Source: Botryllus schlosseri (lineage: Eukaryota). Taken from it: a stretch of DNA of 64,000 nt. Where the stretch lies: the NCBI GenBank assembly GCA_051294905.1, contig CM119371.1, positions 21,702,001-21,766,000 of the forward strand, given 5' to 3'. The position numbers were made by a program, and so were the translations under genes. Position 1 is the stretch's first letter. Each line of letters starts with the position of its first letter. Of the stretch, positions 11,107 through 58,369 are shown one piece after another. The notes under the pieces are model-generated. The model saw nothing but the letters and a program-made list of their open reading frames with translations, was not told the origin of the DNA and ran no database searches.

Positions 11107-13002
11107 GTAAGTCGATTCTCATTGGCCCACCTCATTTGGCCCGCAATGAAAAACAATTACCCACCTCTCGTCCAATCAACTCTTGCATGCTATTTTACCA
11201 CTGTTTCCCAACCGGTGGAGGATTCAAGGTTTTATGGTGGGTAACAAACGAACACACAAAGTAAATTCATCCAGAATTATATAAATATATACGAGGTCAT
11301 AACACCACGATTGCAGTTACCAGTTCACTGCTCTGAACTGCATGTGTCGCCAATTCTAAGGCGTGTAATTCACAAAAACTAATTTTGAATTCTCAATAAC
11401 CTATATCGGAATTAAAAACACGTTTAACAAGAGCAGCATGACGTACAATAAAGCTTCTGCCGAATTACGTGGGATACCGGTACACATGAAGTTTTATGTT
11501 ACAGTAAAAAAACATTGTTTCGGTTTCCTTTCATACATCCCAGGTATATTAGATGTACTGAAATGAACAAGTAACTTGTCCGTGACATTCGGCATATTGC
11601 TCCAAAGTTAGAGAAATGATGGACAACTCCCACGATAACTGTTTTTTTTTTCACTGGTCGTCACTATCAATCCCGGTTTTTCTTAATATGTACCAATCGA
11701 AAGTCCTTACGAAACAAAGTCTTTCAATTTTTCATTGAATGACCATTTTCAAGGGTTGGATGGATGGATTTTTTGTAGTTGGAAATGAAAACAAGAAAAC
11801 ATTCAGAGATGTTGCATGAAGGAAAAGGGTTGGGAACCACTGTATTATCCGGTTGAATATTTATTTCCCCGAAGCCCAAACCAACCACTACCGCCTACCT
11901 AGTCACAATACCGCGAGAAACACGAATATGCAAATGTCTCTTGACAAAGGAAAAAAATGAAATTTAATATTTCGTTAAGTCTGCATCATCCTCTGTTTCG
12001 AGCCAGACATTTCGATTGACTTATTTTCTGTTTCGGCGTTATATTGGATATGTGCAAATTAGTGCAGTGTCGCGTAGCTTCCATCAACTTATTACGCAAC
12101 AGTACCTTATCTCGAATGCGTTATGTATCTCTAGACACGACCATGATGCAAGCAATTAGTTTTCCGCTCGGACCAAGCCGTTATTCCGCTTAGTTCAGCC
12201 CAACAATGTGAGACTAGACAAAGTGTCTGAACGAAGCGGAGTCTACTGTACTGCAAATTGTTAGCATGTCAGAACAGATTAAAAGATCAAGCGTTGAATA
12301 TCATCATCGTGCCAGCATAAATATTACATGCTGACGTGTCTATATGTCATTTCATCGTGATACGATTTATTCGATTGCGTAAAATTTTGATCATTAAATC
12401 AAGGGATTACCTACACGTGTCCTCATCGAGAGAGAGATTTGTTTCTGGTAGGCCTACATTTCGTCGAATCTAATATCTTTCCACCATACCGGCAATCTTG
12501 ATGCGATGTCAAGAAATACAAGCATGCAGCAAAGGGGACTAATAGCAATTGGCCCAACCATAGGCACCAACTATTATTTCTGCTTGGGGTGGCGGCAGGC
12601 GTGTAGCCAGGGGGTATCGAAACCCCTCCTTTTGAAACGCATAACCCCGTCCTTTTGAAATGATCATTCAGTCGCCAATGTTCAGTTGTGAAGTCGTATT
12701 ATCAGTGATACGCGACCAAATGCAACACAACGCGATCTCCCGTTTAGATGATTGCGAAATTATGTCTTTGATTGCCGCGCGCTCGGCATTCGTCGCTGGA
12801 CTAAGCAGTAGGGCTCTTCAAAAAATGACTTTTTTCTCAAATCGTACTGGCTACTTGATAAAATTGTTAGGTTACCTAATTTAAACGTACACACAAAATT
12901 TGGTTCCTTTCCAGCCAGTAACCGCTTTGCTACAGGAGAAGAAAGTTTATATTTATTATATAAAAATTAGTACGGCTTTCAACAGTAAATTCATATTTAA
13001 TG

Positions 13003-13048
13003 ACTCGAAGAACTTTTCGCGTGCCTCTTATCAAGAGCAACCGGCACG
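13003..13048 (-). ncRNA. Minimal type I hammerhead ribozyme motif (U3-A8 variant) in inverted pLTR
   Basis: CGTGCC-GGTT-GCTC-TTGATAA-G-A-GGCACG-C-GAAA-AGTTCT-TC-GAGT on the minus strand. Confidence 0.65.
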
Positions 13049-13677
13049 ATAAAGGATACAAAACAGAGATGGATTCAAAACCAAATGGTGGGACGCACAT
13101 CCCAACGCTTGCTAGAACGAATCAAAGAGCATGTTCATAAGGGGATAAGATCGGCATCGCAGTCTCCTGATTCTGAAAATATCACCCAGCAATGTAAACA
13201 GAAACTCGCATCAAATCCCAATCGTACAGCCAAGTGTTGGCATGCAGTTCTTCAATTGGCCAGCATTTGATCGCCAACCCGTCTTGTGCCTCAAACTATT
13301 CAGACAACATGTTTTCAGTTTTATCCAAGGGTAGAACCATATTTCATTTAACAGCTTTGGAATCCACTTTCATCAAACTAAATAACCTGGTCCTTTGTCG
13401 CTAGAAAGAATTTTTGTATAATCTTAAAATCTCACACTAGTTGTTGTTGCTTAGCTGTTCGTCCGCATTCCGGTACAATTTTTTTTCTGTGTTGCTGCAT
13501 TGTCTCATTGTATTTGTATGTTATTCCTCACGGGCACTACTTCTTCAAGTTGATTGTTGCTATGTACGCCGCATTGTTGCTATGGTTGAATTTCCATTCA
13601 TGTTATTTATAAATTTTCATTATTGCGTCACAATTCACCGTTTGGTTTTGAATCCATTTCTGTTTTGTATCCTCTAT

Positions 13678-13723
13678 CGTGCCGGTTGCTCTTGATAAGA
13701 GGCACCCGAAAAGTTCTTCGAGT
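13678..13723 (+). ncRNA. Minimal type I hammerhead ribozyme motif (U3-A8 variant) in 3' pLTR
   Basis: Stem I GCTC/GAGT, core TTGATAA...GAAA, quasi-palindromic stem III AGTTCT, predicted cleavage after C13719. Confidence 0.65.
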
Positions 13724-13835
13724 CATTAAATAGGAATTTACTGTTGAAAGCCGTGTTCAAGTTTTGTACCACCAATCAGTTATAAAAATTAGTTATATAA
13801 AATTTGAAAAATTTTGTGTTCACCCCATGAAAGTG

Positions 13836-14090
13836 TTAGGATGTCTATAGAAGCGATGCTCACCAAATTTGGTTCAATTCCAACCAGTGGAAGCGGAGTT
13901 ATTGCCGTCGAAAAATTTGGTTTTGAATAAAATAGTATTTACGGTGACCGATTCTTTGTTTATTTATTATAGTTGTGCTCACCGTAAATACTATTTTATT
14001 CAAATCCAAATTTTTCGACGGCAATAACTCCGCTTCCACTGGTTGGAATTGAACAAAATTCGGCGAGCATTGTTTCTATAGACAGCCTAA
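13836..14090. repeat. Long inverted repeat, 112-bp arms with 31-bp spacer
   Basis: 13836-13947 is the reverse complement of 13979-14090, with 7 mismatches by my count. Confidence 0.9.
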
Positions 14091-52445: not shown

Positions 52446-53869
52446 CTAGATATGAATTAGAAAATGCAGAAACAAAAACAAATGCAATCGTCACCAGTAC
52501 AACTGTCAACCATACAACTCAGATACCGTATTCAGGCCCATAAATAATTCACGCTTACATAAACCATAATGGCGTCTTAGGCCCTTTCTTTGTGGACAAA
52601 CCTCATAATACTCGGTGCTAGAATAGAGGGTTGTAATAGTCACAAGGTTCCAAGTCACATATAGTTGTGACTTGAGAGTCAATTTAACCCATTTTCGTGT
52701 TTGAGTTCCGTGATTGATTCCGTGACGAGAAGTTGTCGTCGGACAACTACCCCTGAGTTGATCAGGTGGTTTCGATATTAAACATTTCGGAAACCTTATT
52801 GATTGACTGTTGTAGGTCGTATATCAAAATACTGTGCTGTTTTGAATCGATGAATGTATCAATTAACTCAATTCAACTGACTGATAGAGTGAATTATTTA
52901 CGATTGCCGCTTTACCGACCACAGCTATACTGTTACGGCTGGCGCAACATCCACACGTTCGCTGTCATGTTATTTAATAGAAAACAGCAAGCTCTATCTC
53001 TATTTAATAATATCAATTCCAAATGTTTCGGAATTGGACAGTTCTAGGGTTTGGACCTGCGGTGTTAATAGATACTGAATGATGAATGATGATATGACGT
53101 TCTGTACATATTTGATATCTTCATCTTGCTGATCCAACGACAAACAAAACACATATCGCTCGATGGCTCGCGTTAGATAAATGTGTCTTAGGACGTTTAC
53201 TTCTCGAAAAGTGGTATCGCCAGTCTACCTGTGTTCAGCAATTATTTATCAACAAACATTTAGATAACAGTACGGGTCATTCAGTTGTTCCATATGATAC
53301 GGCTACATTGTCACATCCATTTTATGCGGCAATATGAATACCTTTATTTTTCACAAAACGTTTTTGTATAAATCATTTTCCCGTCGAACGTGATGTTTCA
53401 GTGCCGATTGGTTTGTAATAATATATAAGAAGTTTGTACTAGACGGCTTAGTGCTTTGTTCGAAGCAGGATTAATGAGTTGGCTGTGGCGAATGTTAATA
53501 TTGGATTGGTACTGAACCTTTTTCGACCTCGCGAACTTTCAAAAACAAAAATTCATTATCAATTTTATTACTACAAATGCACGCCACTTAAATTAATATT
53601 GGAAAAATTTAATGCTGTTTTTATTATAGATTGAAATATGGACATATTGAAGTTTCTGCAAGGAGAGACTCTCAAAGACTTGATAAAAACCTTTTATCTG
53701 ATTGTTATTGCTCGGCATCCTTGAAAGAAATGCGAGTTTGCAATTTACTAGAGCCTCTATTATACAGTCAAGTGACACTTCAGTCTACTGTCGGAGCTTA
53801 ACGAAGTTTGTTCAATAGTTTCCGTAGCTTTCGCATATAACTTCTCCGATACGAGAACGAGTTGCAGGT

Positions 53870-54027
53870 TGTGGTGATCGCTATCGTCTCATTTCGGTTT
53901 TGTTATTATTGCCTAATTGGTTGATTATGTACTGTAGTCCTAGGTATAAAACCATTGCGTTTCTATTCATAGTTTGTCTTAGTTAATAAAAGCCTTGGAT
54001 GTAAAGAGGTGTATTCGATTCACAACA
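53870..54027 (+). repeat. 5' LTR
   Basis: 4 mismatches against 58085-58242; TATAAAA at 53945, AATAAA at 53985. Confidence 0.95.
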
Positions 54028-54028
54028 A

Positions 54029-54047
54029 TTTTATTAACTAAGACAAA
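54029..54047 (+). promoter_or_regulatory. Primer-binding site complementary to the element's own LTR (self-priming type)
   Basis: TTTTATTAACTAAGACAAA is the exact reverse complement of 53973-53991. Confidence 0.8.
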
Positions 54048-54059
54048 GCAGCTTTAGTC

Positions 54060-57000
54060 ATGTCGGTCGATGGAGAAGCAGAAAACCGTCGACGCCCTAT
54101 TCTCATAAGGGTACCTACTCTTGAGGTGTTACCGAATGCTCCGGCCGTTCAGAAGTCATTCTGTCATTGGGAACGACAACTGGAATCCTACATAGCTGCT
54201 GCATCCTTTGCCGATGTCACAGTAGGTAAGCTTGCATTATTGTGTGGATTCATTTCGGCGGACGTCTACGCATTGATAGAAGAAAAGCAATCCTACGACG
54301 AAGCTTTGAAGTTATTACAGGATCTTTACAAACCTAAGAAAAATGTTATATTTTCAAGACATCTTCTCTCAAGTAGGGCGCAAGATACCCAGCGAGACCG
54401 TTCAGGAATTTCACCAAAGCTTATCAGCGCTCGCAAAGGATTGCGATTTCAAGAGTGTCACCGCCGAGCAATATCGCCAAGAATCCATGAGAGATGCTTT
54501 CATCAGAGGTTTGAAATCTTCCCATATACGTACGAGACTGCTTGAATACGAGGAACTGCCACTGCAAAAAGCGATTATCACTGCTATTTCACTGGAGAAA
54601 GATCAAGAATTTTCCACTTCCTATAAAGTTAATGACATCGATGCACGTTTCGTTGCAAGCACCTCTAACGATCCCAGCCGGCCTGCGAGAGACGCACCGG
54701 ATCCTCAGCTCAACACGGTTTCTGCAATTAGCAGAGTGTCCGAAGTCAAATCAATCAAAAAATGCACGTTCTGTGGAGGTACCCATGTCGCTAAGCGCGA
54801 CCAATGCCCAGCATCGATGGTTGAATGTTATAAATGTGGCAGACTTGGACATTTCAGAAAGTTCTGTAAATCAGAAAGCAAATACCTGGCTGCTGCTCCG
54901 AAATGTTTGAAGGACTCGACCATACCCCTTACAACTGCACAGCAGATATTCGATGCTATGCTCGATTCGGGAGCTGCTGAATGTTTCATCAAACTGGATA
55001 TTGCCATCAAACTATAGGTTTGTTTCCACAGGGACCAACTTACAGTATCAAATTGGCTTCCAACAAATGCGCCACCGATGTGCTAGGACACGTTACTGTC
55101 GTATTCATAGTGGCGTCACGTGAGTACACTCATCAATTTGGCATGATCGATGATTTATGTGCAGACTTCGTCCTCGGACTAGATTTCATGAGATTGCACA
55201 AGAAGGTTATTTTCGAATTCAAAGATGGCAAGAACGAGCCATTTACAGTAGGCGTAAACTCTCACTTGGCACTTGTTACTTCCAAAGTCGATGAACCGCT
55301 TCGTATATTCCAATTATTGACTCCAGATTGCAAACCTATTGCCGCTCCTTCTCGAAGGTATAGCAAAGAAGATAACGAATTTAATAAAGGAGAAGTACAG
55401 AAGCTCCTCAGTGACGGTATCATAGATCCGAGTCATTCACCTTGGCGTGCTCAGCCACTAGTAACCTGGGACGCGCGGCATAAACGAAGACTTGTCATTG
55501 ACTATTCAGTATCTATCAACAGGTACACCAATTTGGATGCTTATCCACTGCCACGTATAGAAGATGTTATCAATGAAGTCTCTAAAGGCAAGTACTATTC
55601 AGCCGTTGATTTGAAATCGACTTACCATCAAGTCCCGTTACACCCTGATGACAGACCTTTCACGGCGTTCGCCGCTTGCGGTTCACTTTACCAATTTTGC
55701 AGATTACCGTTCGGCGTCACGAATGGAGTAGCGGCTTATCAACGTTACATCGATTCGTTTATTTCAAAGCATCAATTACAGGGTGTAGTGGCGTATTTGG
55801 ATGATATTACAATCTATGGCGCGACCAAGGAAGAGCATGATATCCGCTTGAAAGCATTTTTAGATTCCGCAACAGCTTGTCACCTCACCATCAATACAGA
55901 GAAATCAAGTTTTGGAATCGAAGAAATACAATTGCTTGGATAACTGGTTGGTGGTACAGAACTTGAACACGGCATTTAACAGTATATTCATATTTATTGA
56001 CTTGAAGAACTTTTCGCGTGCCTCTTATCAAGAGCACCCGGCACGATAAAGAATATACAGAACAGATGGATTCAAAACCAAATGGCGAATTGTGACGTGA
56101 TAATGCAAATTTATAAATAACATGAATGGAAATTCAGCCATAGCAACAATGCAGCGTATATAGCAACAAGCAACTTGAAAAGTAGAGCGCGTGAGGTATA
56201 AAATACAAATACAATGAGACAATGCAGCAACACAGAGGAAAAAAATGAACAAAAACACGGACGAACAGCTAACAATTGCTTGGGCACAAAATATCTCACG
56301 GCAACATAAGTCCGGACCCTGACCACATGAAGCCGCTCCCGGAAATGGCCGCGCCAACGGACTCTAAAGGTTTGAAACGTATATGCGGTATGTTTTCATA
56401 TTATTCCAAATGGATTCACAATTTCTCGGCTAAGATTAGGCCTCTTATTCGTTCATCCAATTTTCCTTTGGGACCTGATGCTATTGCTGCTTTTCGTCAA
56501 TTGAAGAAAGAGATAATGGATGCATTTACAAAGACCAACCATTTACAGTTGAGTGCGACGCGTCAAACTGCGCCATTGCAGCAGTTTTGAATCAGTGTGA
56601 TCGGCCTGTAGCGTTCTTCTCTCGCACACTTACAAAGACAGAATCGAACTACCCCGCTATTGAGAAAGAAGCTCTCGCAATCATTGAATCGGTTCGGAAG
56701 TGGAACTACTTGCTTGCCAATGAGAAATTCCTTCTTGTTACAGATCAAAGAGCGTTATCTTACATATTTCAGAAGAAGCATCACAGCAAAATCAAGAATA
56801 CAAAACTTGCGCTATGGCGTCTTGAACTCAGCTCTTTCAACTATGACATTTCACATCGCGCGGGAATCGAAAACGTCGCTGCAGACACCTTGTCTCGTAT
56901 CTGCTCCGTAACCGGTTCAGGTCAAAATTTAAATGAAATCCATGCACAACTTGGCCATCCCGGAGTTAGCCGATTGGCCCACTTTGTTAAATCCAAGAAT

Positions 57001-58023
57001 TTACCGTATTCCACGGAAGACGTGAAACGTATCTGTTCCGGCTGCCGTGTATGCACAGAACTTAAACCTAGATTTTATAAAGGAGATTCTCACCAACTGA
57101 TCAAAGCCATTTATCCCTGACAAAGAATATCAATCGATTTCAAAGGTCCGGTCCCCTGTAAACGTAAATTCATTTTAATCATTGTCGACGAATATTCACG
57201 ATTCCCTTTTGCATTTCCATGCTACAATATGACGTCGGAAACCGTAATCGAATGTCTAATGACGTAGTTCACTCTCGTTGGATTGCCTGAATATGTACAT
57301 AGCGATAGATCGATGTCATTTATGTCGAAAAGAATGAACGATTTCCTAACGAAGAAAGGTGTTGCAACAAGTCAATCAACCCCTTATCACCCCACTGGCA
57401 ACTCCCAATGTGAGAGAACCAACCAAACTGTTTGGAGAACAGTTGAACCACTGCTTGCCCAATACCAAATGCCACTGTCCTCATGGGAGGAGGTACTCCC
57501 AGACGCATTACATTGTATCAGGTCGCTTCTGTGCACGGCTACAAATTGTACACCTCACGATCGATTTTTCTCTTTTCAAAGGCGATCAATGAATGGCTCT
57601 TCATTACCCGATTGGCTTTTCAAGTCGGGTACAGTTCTACTGCGTAAGTTCGTCCGCGATAAGAGTGACCCTTTATGCGATAAAGTGTATTTACTCGATG
57701 CTAATCCAAAATACGCTTTGATTCGCTATCCAGATGGAAGAGAGTCGACCGTCTCCACTACAGACCTTGCTCCTTATCCGCGTATGACCGAGGTCACCGA
57801 ATCCTTGCCACAAGGAAAGAAATCTCTTCCTTCTCAATCGGACTTGGATATGCCCTCCAGCGAAATCGAAGAAGAAAAGGTTACTCAGGCCGACGTATTC
57901 TGTAGTGAGGACGCTACCATCCCTGCTGAAATCGCTGACAATGCTCAAAGCAGTTCGACTCCGAGACGCTCTTCACGGACAAGACGAGCTCCTGATAGAT
58001 ATGGGGATTTCGTTTCTCATTAG
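54060..58023 (+). pseudogene. gag-pol polyprotein, disrupted
   Basis: CCHC knuckle CYKCGRLGHFRKFC, protease LDSGA, RT LPFG and YLDD, RNase H (EKEALAI, TDQ, ADTLSR), integrase HHCC and D,D,E; several frameshifts, stops (e.g. TGA 57118-57120) and a PLE insertion. Confidence 0.93.
55940..56271 (-). mobile_element. Solo Penelope-like pLTR (family B) inserted in Gypsy pol
   Basis: Reverse complement of about 13450-13782; TSD ACAATTGCTTGG (55928-55939, 56272-56283); carries the hammerhead motif at 56000-56045 with one stem I mismatch. Confidence 0.9.
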
Positions 58024-58084
58024 ATAACTTTTGTTTGAATTGGTTATTTTCAGCGCTAATGTCTGTTTTATTAGTCGGGGAGAT

Positions 58085-58242
58085 TGTGGTTATCGTTATC
58101 GTCTCATTTCGGTTTTGTTATTATTGCTTAATTGGTTGATTATGTACTGTAGTCCTAGGTATAAAACCATTGCGTTTCTATTCATTGTTTGTCTTAGTTA
58201 ATAAAAGCCTTGGATGTAAAGAGGTGTATTCGATTCACAACA
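58085..58242 (+). repeat. 3' LTR
   Basis: Direct repeat of 53870-54027. Confidence 0.95.
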
Positions 58243-58369
58243 CAGGTTACTTTAATATAATTTCTTATAGCACTTGCACCATTGAGACGTACAGCCGAAA
58301 TATACCACGAACCTTCTATTGACACACCACGCAGAGAAATACCTCCAGACATGGGGGAAGCGAGTGGCA

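Follow-up and report, generated by a model that had tools for sequence, protein, structure and literature searches.

The window (the whole 64-kb stretch of Botryllus schlosseri DNA analysed here) contains an LTR retrotransposon whose 5' LTR is followed by no TGG. This raises the question of how the element starts its reverse transcription. A preliminary description of the same DNA proposed that the transcript primes itself, with a segment of the LTR near the RNA 5' end pairing with the bases just past the LTR.

The element and its family

The element spans positions 53870-58242 of the window and is a decayed Ty3/Gypsy copy, broken by several frameshifts and by a 332-bp foreign repeat in the RT region (Table 1). 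This repeat is probably a small non-autonomous mobile element. Related copies with 88-90% identity are found at window positions 13451-13779 and 12972-13088, and the first of these adjoins a near-perfect large palindrome (13872-14054) with arms of 49 and 26 nt.

Table 1. Features of the retrotransposon, in window coordinates.
Feature	Position	Strand	Remarks
Target-site duplication, 5' copy	53865..53869	.	CAGGT, 5 bp; the same five bases follow the 3' LTR
5' LTR	53870..54027	+	158 bp, TGTGG...ACAACA; 5 differences in 158 nt from the 3' LTR
Candidate TATA box, TATAAAA	53945..53951	+	28 nt upstream of the LTR arm
LTR arm, candidate self-primer	53973..53991	+	part kept in the family is 53976-53991
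AATAAA poly(A) hexamer	53985..53990	+	within the LTR arm; canonical hexamer there in 15/21 related hairpins
Spacer, single A	54028	+	between LTR end and candidate primer-binding site
Candidate primer-binding site, complement of the LTR arm	54029..54047	+	family core is 54029-54044
gag-protease-RT-RNase H-integrase frame	54060..58023	+	two CCHC knuckles; broken here by frameshifts and insertion
Unrelated repeat, ~332 bp	55940..56271	.	in the RT region; ~12 element bases duplicated at its flanks
Polypurine tract, GGGGAGA	58077..58083	+	one base upstream of the 3' LTR; same tract type in sister families
3' LTR	58085..58242	+	158 bp; arm copy at 58188-58206 without a complementary site after it
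Target-site duplication, 3' copy	58243..58247	.	CAGGT

At least 15 copies of this family with a 5' LTR and leader are present in the genome (495 Mb). The reading frame is uninterrupted in four of the 12 full-length loci fetched, where it encodes 1214-1215 amino acids; these four intact copies are 4.04 kb long and their LTR starts lie 3.88 kb apart. The family has been mobile recently with the self-complementary arrangement described below, since some of its copies have identical LTRs, target duplications and an uninterrupted frame.

The TG...CA LTRs, the target duplications and the polypurine tract are all features of Ty3/Gypsy elements (Metaviridae). In an intact sister frame (P0001) Pfam identifies an aspartic protease (residues 294-389), RVT_1 (476-635), RT_RNaseH (720-821), Integrase_H2C2 (852-899) and rve (915-1006). 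The order between the LTRs is thus protease, RT, RNase H and integrase, as in Ty3/Gypsy, and the best solved relative of P0001 is Ty3 Gag-Pol (E 3e-61). Two CCHC knuckles (C241...C255 and C262...C275) have invariant cysteines and histidines in 21 proteins. The integrase had been described as lacking a chromodomain, and this agrees with the protein searches: no Chromo family is found in P0001 by Pfam at E up to 0.1, and none of the 120 listed homologs has one among its precomputed Pfam domains. The named proteins among these 120 come from Ciona, nematodes, insects and an isopod.

The C-terminus of the polyprotein (about residues 1195-1210 of P0001, L031:273-3917) carries a basic motif, RRS.R.RR.P.RYG, which follows a variable acidic tail and is near-invariant in 21 proteins. 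This motif could be a nuclear import or targeting signal.

A duplex between the LTR and the leader

The LTR arm (TTTGTCTTAGTTAATAAAA) is the perfect reverse complement of the 19 nt of the candidate primer-binding site, and the neighbouring bases on both sides are unpaired. Given the limits of the 5' LTR, the site begins one nucleotide (A54028) past the LTR. The gag ATG lies 12 nt beyond the site, and the leader from LTR to ATG is 32 nt long in the window copy and 25-35 nt in sister families, which leaves no room for another primer site. Direct reading bears out the 19-nt exact pairing that the preliminary description had reported, together with its observation that no tRNA-type site begins one nucleotide past the LTR, since the complement of the LTR segment is all that the leader contains. 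The geometry that it had named for minus-strand priming is also present: at its 3' end the LTR arm is paired to the base next to U5 plus one.

A stem of this length is not expected by chance. Shuffling the region 53870-54062 a thousand times gave a longest stem of 11 nt (loop 20-90 nt), against the 19 nt observed, and the entire window contains only five perfect inverted repeats of at least 16 nt with a loop of 20-90 nt. The predicted RNA fold of 53973-54062 has an energy of -23.1 kcal/mol (z = -3.75), which was equalled by none of 200 shuffles.

Within the family, 15 copies share the first 16 nt of the site (TTTTATTAACTAAGAC), apart from single changes in four of them. The last three nucleotides vary (AAA, TAC, CTA, TAA or CTG) while the LTR arm stays the same throughout. 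Young copies, with identical or near-identical LTRs and intact target duplications, have 16 (L035 and L038), 19 (L033) or 20 (L037 and L040) paired bases, so the duplex that matters is 16 nt long. The preliminary description had proposed a duplex longer than that of fission-yeast Tf1. Its figure of 19 nt is right for the window copy; for the family it has to be reduced to a core of 16 nt, with 16, 19 or 20 nt in young copies, and other families have about 10-18 nt.

In two further young copies with uninterrupted frames, L031 and L034 (0 and 1 LTR difference), the T that is third in the site has been replaced by A and by C, respectively. The substitution places a mismatch in the duplex, which counts against self-priming. 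It might be a trace of copying across an RNA-DNA junction, or it might have arisen by chance.

Sister families and relatives in other species

A protein search of the same genome finds many relatives with 53-60% identity, in single frames of about 1200-1280 amino acids. The loci fetched from among these relatives represent seven further families, making eight in the genome with that of the window. In 14 of the 16 sister loci fetched, the bases after the LTR are perfectly complementary to an LTR segment over 10-18 nt, and the other two (L045 and L048) could not be evaluated as their LTR limits were not found. In these 14 loci the LTR is followed by the spacer A and then by TTTTAYTNAC..., and the complementary LTR segment, which has AATAAAA or AGTAAAA as its last bases, is located 34-68 nt before the end of the LTR. 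Several paired positions differ from family to family, and they do so on both sides in every case; between L049 and L053, which are close relatives, for example, a G/C swap in the arm is matched in the site.

When metagenome contigs were scanned, 80 further loci were obtained, of which 26 show the start of gag. In 21 of these 26 a perfect stem of 10-17 nt encloses a loop of 28-66 nt; each stem is reached by 0-2 of 100 shuffles, and in these 21 the 3' arm starts no more than three bases from the LTR-terminal CA, except in L105. No stem of at least 9 nt was found in four of the 26 (L082, L093, L103 and L108), and in L065 the arm lies at the opposite end of a permuted contig. Most sister elements in the same genome and most relatives elsewhere keep the complementarity on which the preliminary description depended, and the compensatory changes between LTR and primer-binding site that it had suggested looking for in related families occur as matched changes of both sides, among the sister families as well as in other species.

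Five of the metagenome contigs (L065, L066, L067, L069 and L076) are about 4 kb long and consist of permuted, one-LTR or end-overlapping whole elements, with terminal overlaps of up to 123 nt. They are either assemblies that have collapsed or circles with one LTR. We considered and rejected the possibility that they are transcripts; being permuted or with one LTR, their ends are uninformative on RNA ends. The polyprotein of L066, which has a hairpin of 14 nt, is almost identical to P0065, a protein deposited under the name 'UNVERIFIED_CONTAM ... Armadillidium vulgare' (with branch lengths of 0.005 and 0.010).

A tree was made from 27 polyproteins of this clade only, with frames below 600 amino acids dropped and with no outgroup. 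The eight families of the genome group with a Ciona protein, and the remaining hairpin-bearing elements are placed next to an insect group and among proteins of nematode and isopod origin. The deepest split of the sampled clade therefore has the hairpin architecture on either side.

Covariation and fixed landmarks

We aligned 21 distinct hairpin regions, eight from the same genome and 13 from the metagenome contigs; five of 26 hairpin sequences were omitted, being redundant or in a different register. In a 16-pair helix, with frames set by the hairpin search itself, 94.3% of the cells are paired, against 73.9% in shuffles, and none of 500 shuffles reached as high a value. Changes on both sides are seen in 12 of the 16 pairs. 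All 21 sequences are fully paired over the inner 12 pairs, without a one-sided (G-U) change in any of them. Sliding the partner by one to three columns lowers the pairing to 30-50%, and the mean pairing is 14.2 nt for a family's own arms against 3.4 nt between the arms of different families.

The position of the hairpin is also fixed. The site is preceded by CA and one base (A) in 20 of the 21 sequences. The LTR arm ends in TAAA(A) in all 21, and this is part of a canonical AATAAA or ATTAAA in 15; the other six arms lack a canonical hexamer, and two of the sequences (L075 and L083) have the hexamer in the loop instead. Directly after the arm there is an RCC motif, mostly GCCU or ACCU, in 20 of 21 sequences (window 53992-53996). 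In most minimum-energy folds of the loop this motif pairs with a downstream (A)GGY, giving a small hairpin stacked on the primer duplex. Folds of the loop by itself are not more stable than those of shuffles (z from -2.0 to +0.75).

Transcript ends

The distance between a TATA box and the transcription start is about 30 nt. The preliminary description had placed the arm 28 nt after a TATAAAA at 53945, and this spacing is found on direct reading. The start in the window family is probably at 53975-53976. The 16-nt boundary kept in the family, if combined with copying of the primer up to the RNA 5' end as in Tf1, would put it at G53976, 31 nt after the first T of TATAAAA. Among the 21 aligned sequences, three have a TATA-like motif 27-29 nt before the arm, two have one at a distance of 36-43 nt, and 16 have none. 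Since the spacing is suitable in few families, the arm may not be the extreme 5' end everywhere.

RNA reads on L033:1-640 (eight from one run, none from a second and 30 single-cell reads from a third) gave no start site; a fourth run, probably of DNA, contributed contigs. The 30 single-cell reads extend over the LTR from base 1 to about base 147, in the context of the 3' LTR, nine of them being only 90-95% alike. This cover fits use of the AATAAA of the arm at the 3' end.

A candidate mechanism and its alternatives

We consider it likely that these elements use Tf1-like self-primed reverse transcription, here in a Mag-like, non-chromoviral clade; cleavage and priming are predicted steps of this candidate mechanism. 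The clade is probably one of small (~4 kb), single-frame, non-chromoviral animal Ty3/Gypsy elements whose reverse transcription begins with no tRNA. A stretch of about 12-19 nt of the LTR, close to the transcript start and ending in the TAAA(A) of the hexamer, would fold onto a site that begins two bases past the LTR. By analogy with fission-yeast Tf1, the RNase H of the element would then cut the RNA after the last paired A, and the freed 3'-OH would prime minus-strand DNA, which would run across the spacer and U5 and the remainder of R. The plus strand would copy the attached primer, so that the site would be rewritten from the LTR arm and the complementarity would be perfect in every family. 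The same hairpin may mask the 5' poly(A) signal, with the partnerless 3' copy staying free.

The hairpin might instead be a regulatory RNA structure only, concerned with masking of the 5' poly(A) signal, with packaging or with translation of gag, which starts 12 nt further on, and the primer might be something else. A canonical hexamer at the inner end of 15 of the 21 arms is in keeping with such a role, as are the arm copy in the 3' LTR, which has no partner, and the single-cell reads to LTR base ~147, which fit use of the hexamer at the 3' end (30 reads, nine of them only 90-95% alike). However, no other primer site fits into a leader of 25-35 nt, and masking of a poly(A) signal cannot hold for the six arms without a canonical hexamer, including those of L075 and L083 with the hexamer in the loop. 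Selection on a structure alone would also allow G-U pairs and a variable position, whereas the inner 12 pairs contain no G-U and the site is always directly past the LTR. The lack of G-U pairs would be accounted for if the site is rewritten by copying of the primer, rather than by a structure that is only under selection. The fixed placement beside U5 is needed for priming and is not needed by a mere structural hairpin. A purely regulatory hairpin is thus unlikely, and a regulatory function would in any case be compatible with self-priming, as a second role of the same structure.

Two other partners for the site can be imagined. One is the arm copy in the 3' LTR or on a second RNA, in place of the 5' copy, as an aid to circularisation, dimerisation or strand transfer. 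The arm is present in both LTRs, so the copy that pairs is indistinguishable by sequence, and a transcription start downstream of the arm would leave only the 3' copy in the RNA. We find this very improbable, as the position of TATAAAA, 28 nt ahead of the arm, would place the arm in the RNA 5' end in the window family, a local hairpin with a loop of 28-66 nt would be kinetically favoured, and the primer would be left unexplained. The other partner is a host tRNA fragment or other host RNA acting as the primer, with the match to the LTR secondary. Half-tRNA priming is known in other LTR elements (PMC6317226). In the tRNA sample 63 of about 36000 candidates were scored, and the longest match between the primer sequence of any of the families and 20 sampled tRNA loci, 7 nt, is a weak test with 19 genes of only four types (Lys, Ala, Arg and Ser). 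There is no tRNA gene in the 64-kb window, no Rfam family comes near threshold on the hairpin region, where the only match is a far sub-threshold hairpin, and the LTR is followed by no TGG. The case against a tRNA primer rests on the family-specific matched changes: the site differs among eight families of one genome, each matched in its own LTR, and a fixed host tRNA cannot explain pairing that is kept by changes on both sides in sister families and other species. The chance that a host RNA is the primer appears slight indeed. Elsewhere in the genome, the interval C3:34488226-34508096 is a dense cluster of more than 20 tRNA genes in 20 kb; six were fetched and typed, and all are tRNA-Lys(UUU).

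Self-priming from the 5' arm remains the preferred reading. If it is correct, a large, recently active non-chromoviral clade of animal elements does without a tRNA primer, and loss of tRNA priming is recurrent or ancient. The clade would provide animal material for testing the self-priming mechanism. It would also explain elements scored as lacking a primer site in surveys that seek tRNA complements only; one metazoan survey reports tRNA sites in 1151 of 1512 elements (PMC13524379). According to PMC7472051, elements primed by tRNA are open to attack by small RNAs made from tRNA 3' ends, which a self-primer would escape.

A wider and more tentative proposal is that a non-chromoviral Gypsy clade across bilaterian animals gave up tRNA priming and that one hairpin has two jobs, the start of R with its hexamer being both the minus-strand primer and, when paired, a masked poly(A) signal. 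As a whole this proposal is possible and rather doubtful. Were it to hold, the 5' and 3' ends of the RNA would be distinguished by the structure that starts replication, and tRNA independence would free the elements from host defences aimed at tRNA primer sites.

Comparison with known systems

To our knowledge self-priming has been shown experimentally only in fission-yeast elements of the Tf1 type, and predictions of it mainly concern chromoviruses and some plant Copia lineages. Tf1 has a single gag-pol frame, like the elements described here, and its cleavage and priming are established by experiment, whereas here they are predicted from sequence. The Tf1 duplex is 11 nt long against about 12-19 nt in the present clade, where the primer segment in addition ends in a poly(A) hexamer. 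Tf1 and Tf2 of Schizosaccharomyces pombe and Tj1 of S. japonicus are described as having a post-LTR site that is the complement of a segment further upstream, within the LTR, which lies at the 5' end of the mRNA (PMC4600332). The looping of this LTR segment back to the post-LTR region as a self-primer is reported as established for Tf1 and proposed for its relatives (PMC4600332, PMC5006619). The present elements likewise have no tRNA site and have a post-LTR site complementary to an LTR segment. They differ from Tf1, Tf2 and Tj1, which are fungal chromoviruses, in their animal hosts and in the absence of a chromodomain. Several other fungal chromoviruses are also in print as self-primers.

In the vertebrate Tf1/sushi group (sushi-ichi and others) self-priming was proposed from complementarity between site and LTR (Butler et al. 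2001, as cited in PMC6317226 and PMC4600332). This group shares animal hosts and predicted self-priming with the elements studied here, but its members are chromodomain-bearing chromoviruses, whereas the present elements have two CCHC knuckles, no chromodomain, a length of about 4 kb and LTRs of 158-245 bp. For the plant Tcn1 chromoviruses and TAR Copia elements, self-priming has been predicted from sequence for whole lineages, as it is here (PMC6317226). These belong to another superfamily or clade and to another kingdom, and no link to a poly(A) hexamer is described for them in the corresponding part of PMC6317226.

Among lineages with tRNA primers, the CsRn1 clade has a tRNA-Trp site, a CHCC Gag motif and a 4-bp duplication (PMC2582038). 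The LTR start TGTGGTG of the present family fits the CsRn1 motif (PMC3601003), and it is the only feature that fits; membership is ruled out by the lack of a TGG site, the two CCHC knuckles and the 5-bp duplication.

We found no description in the literature of self-priming in Mag-like or Cigr-1-like animal elements, and older key papers could hold a prior mention. Elements of the Mag lineage are reported to be 4-5 kb long, with LTRs of about 140-210 bp, often one frame and a 5-bp target duplication (PMC3286476), two CCHC arrays in the nucleocapsid (PMC2577118) and a clear AATAAA in the LTR (PMC3601003). Mosquito Mag-like elements are described with sites for tRNA-Ser, tRNA-Leu or tRNA-Arg (PMC3286476). 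Compared by these descriptions, the present elements resemble the Mag lineage (Mag, SURL, Jule and mosquito families) in their size, short LTRs, 5-bp duplication and two CCHC arrays, and they differ from its mosquito members in having the complement of their own LTR where those have a tRNA-type site.
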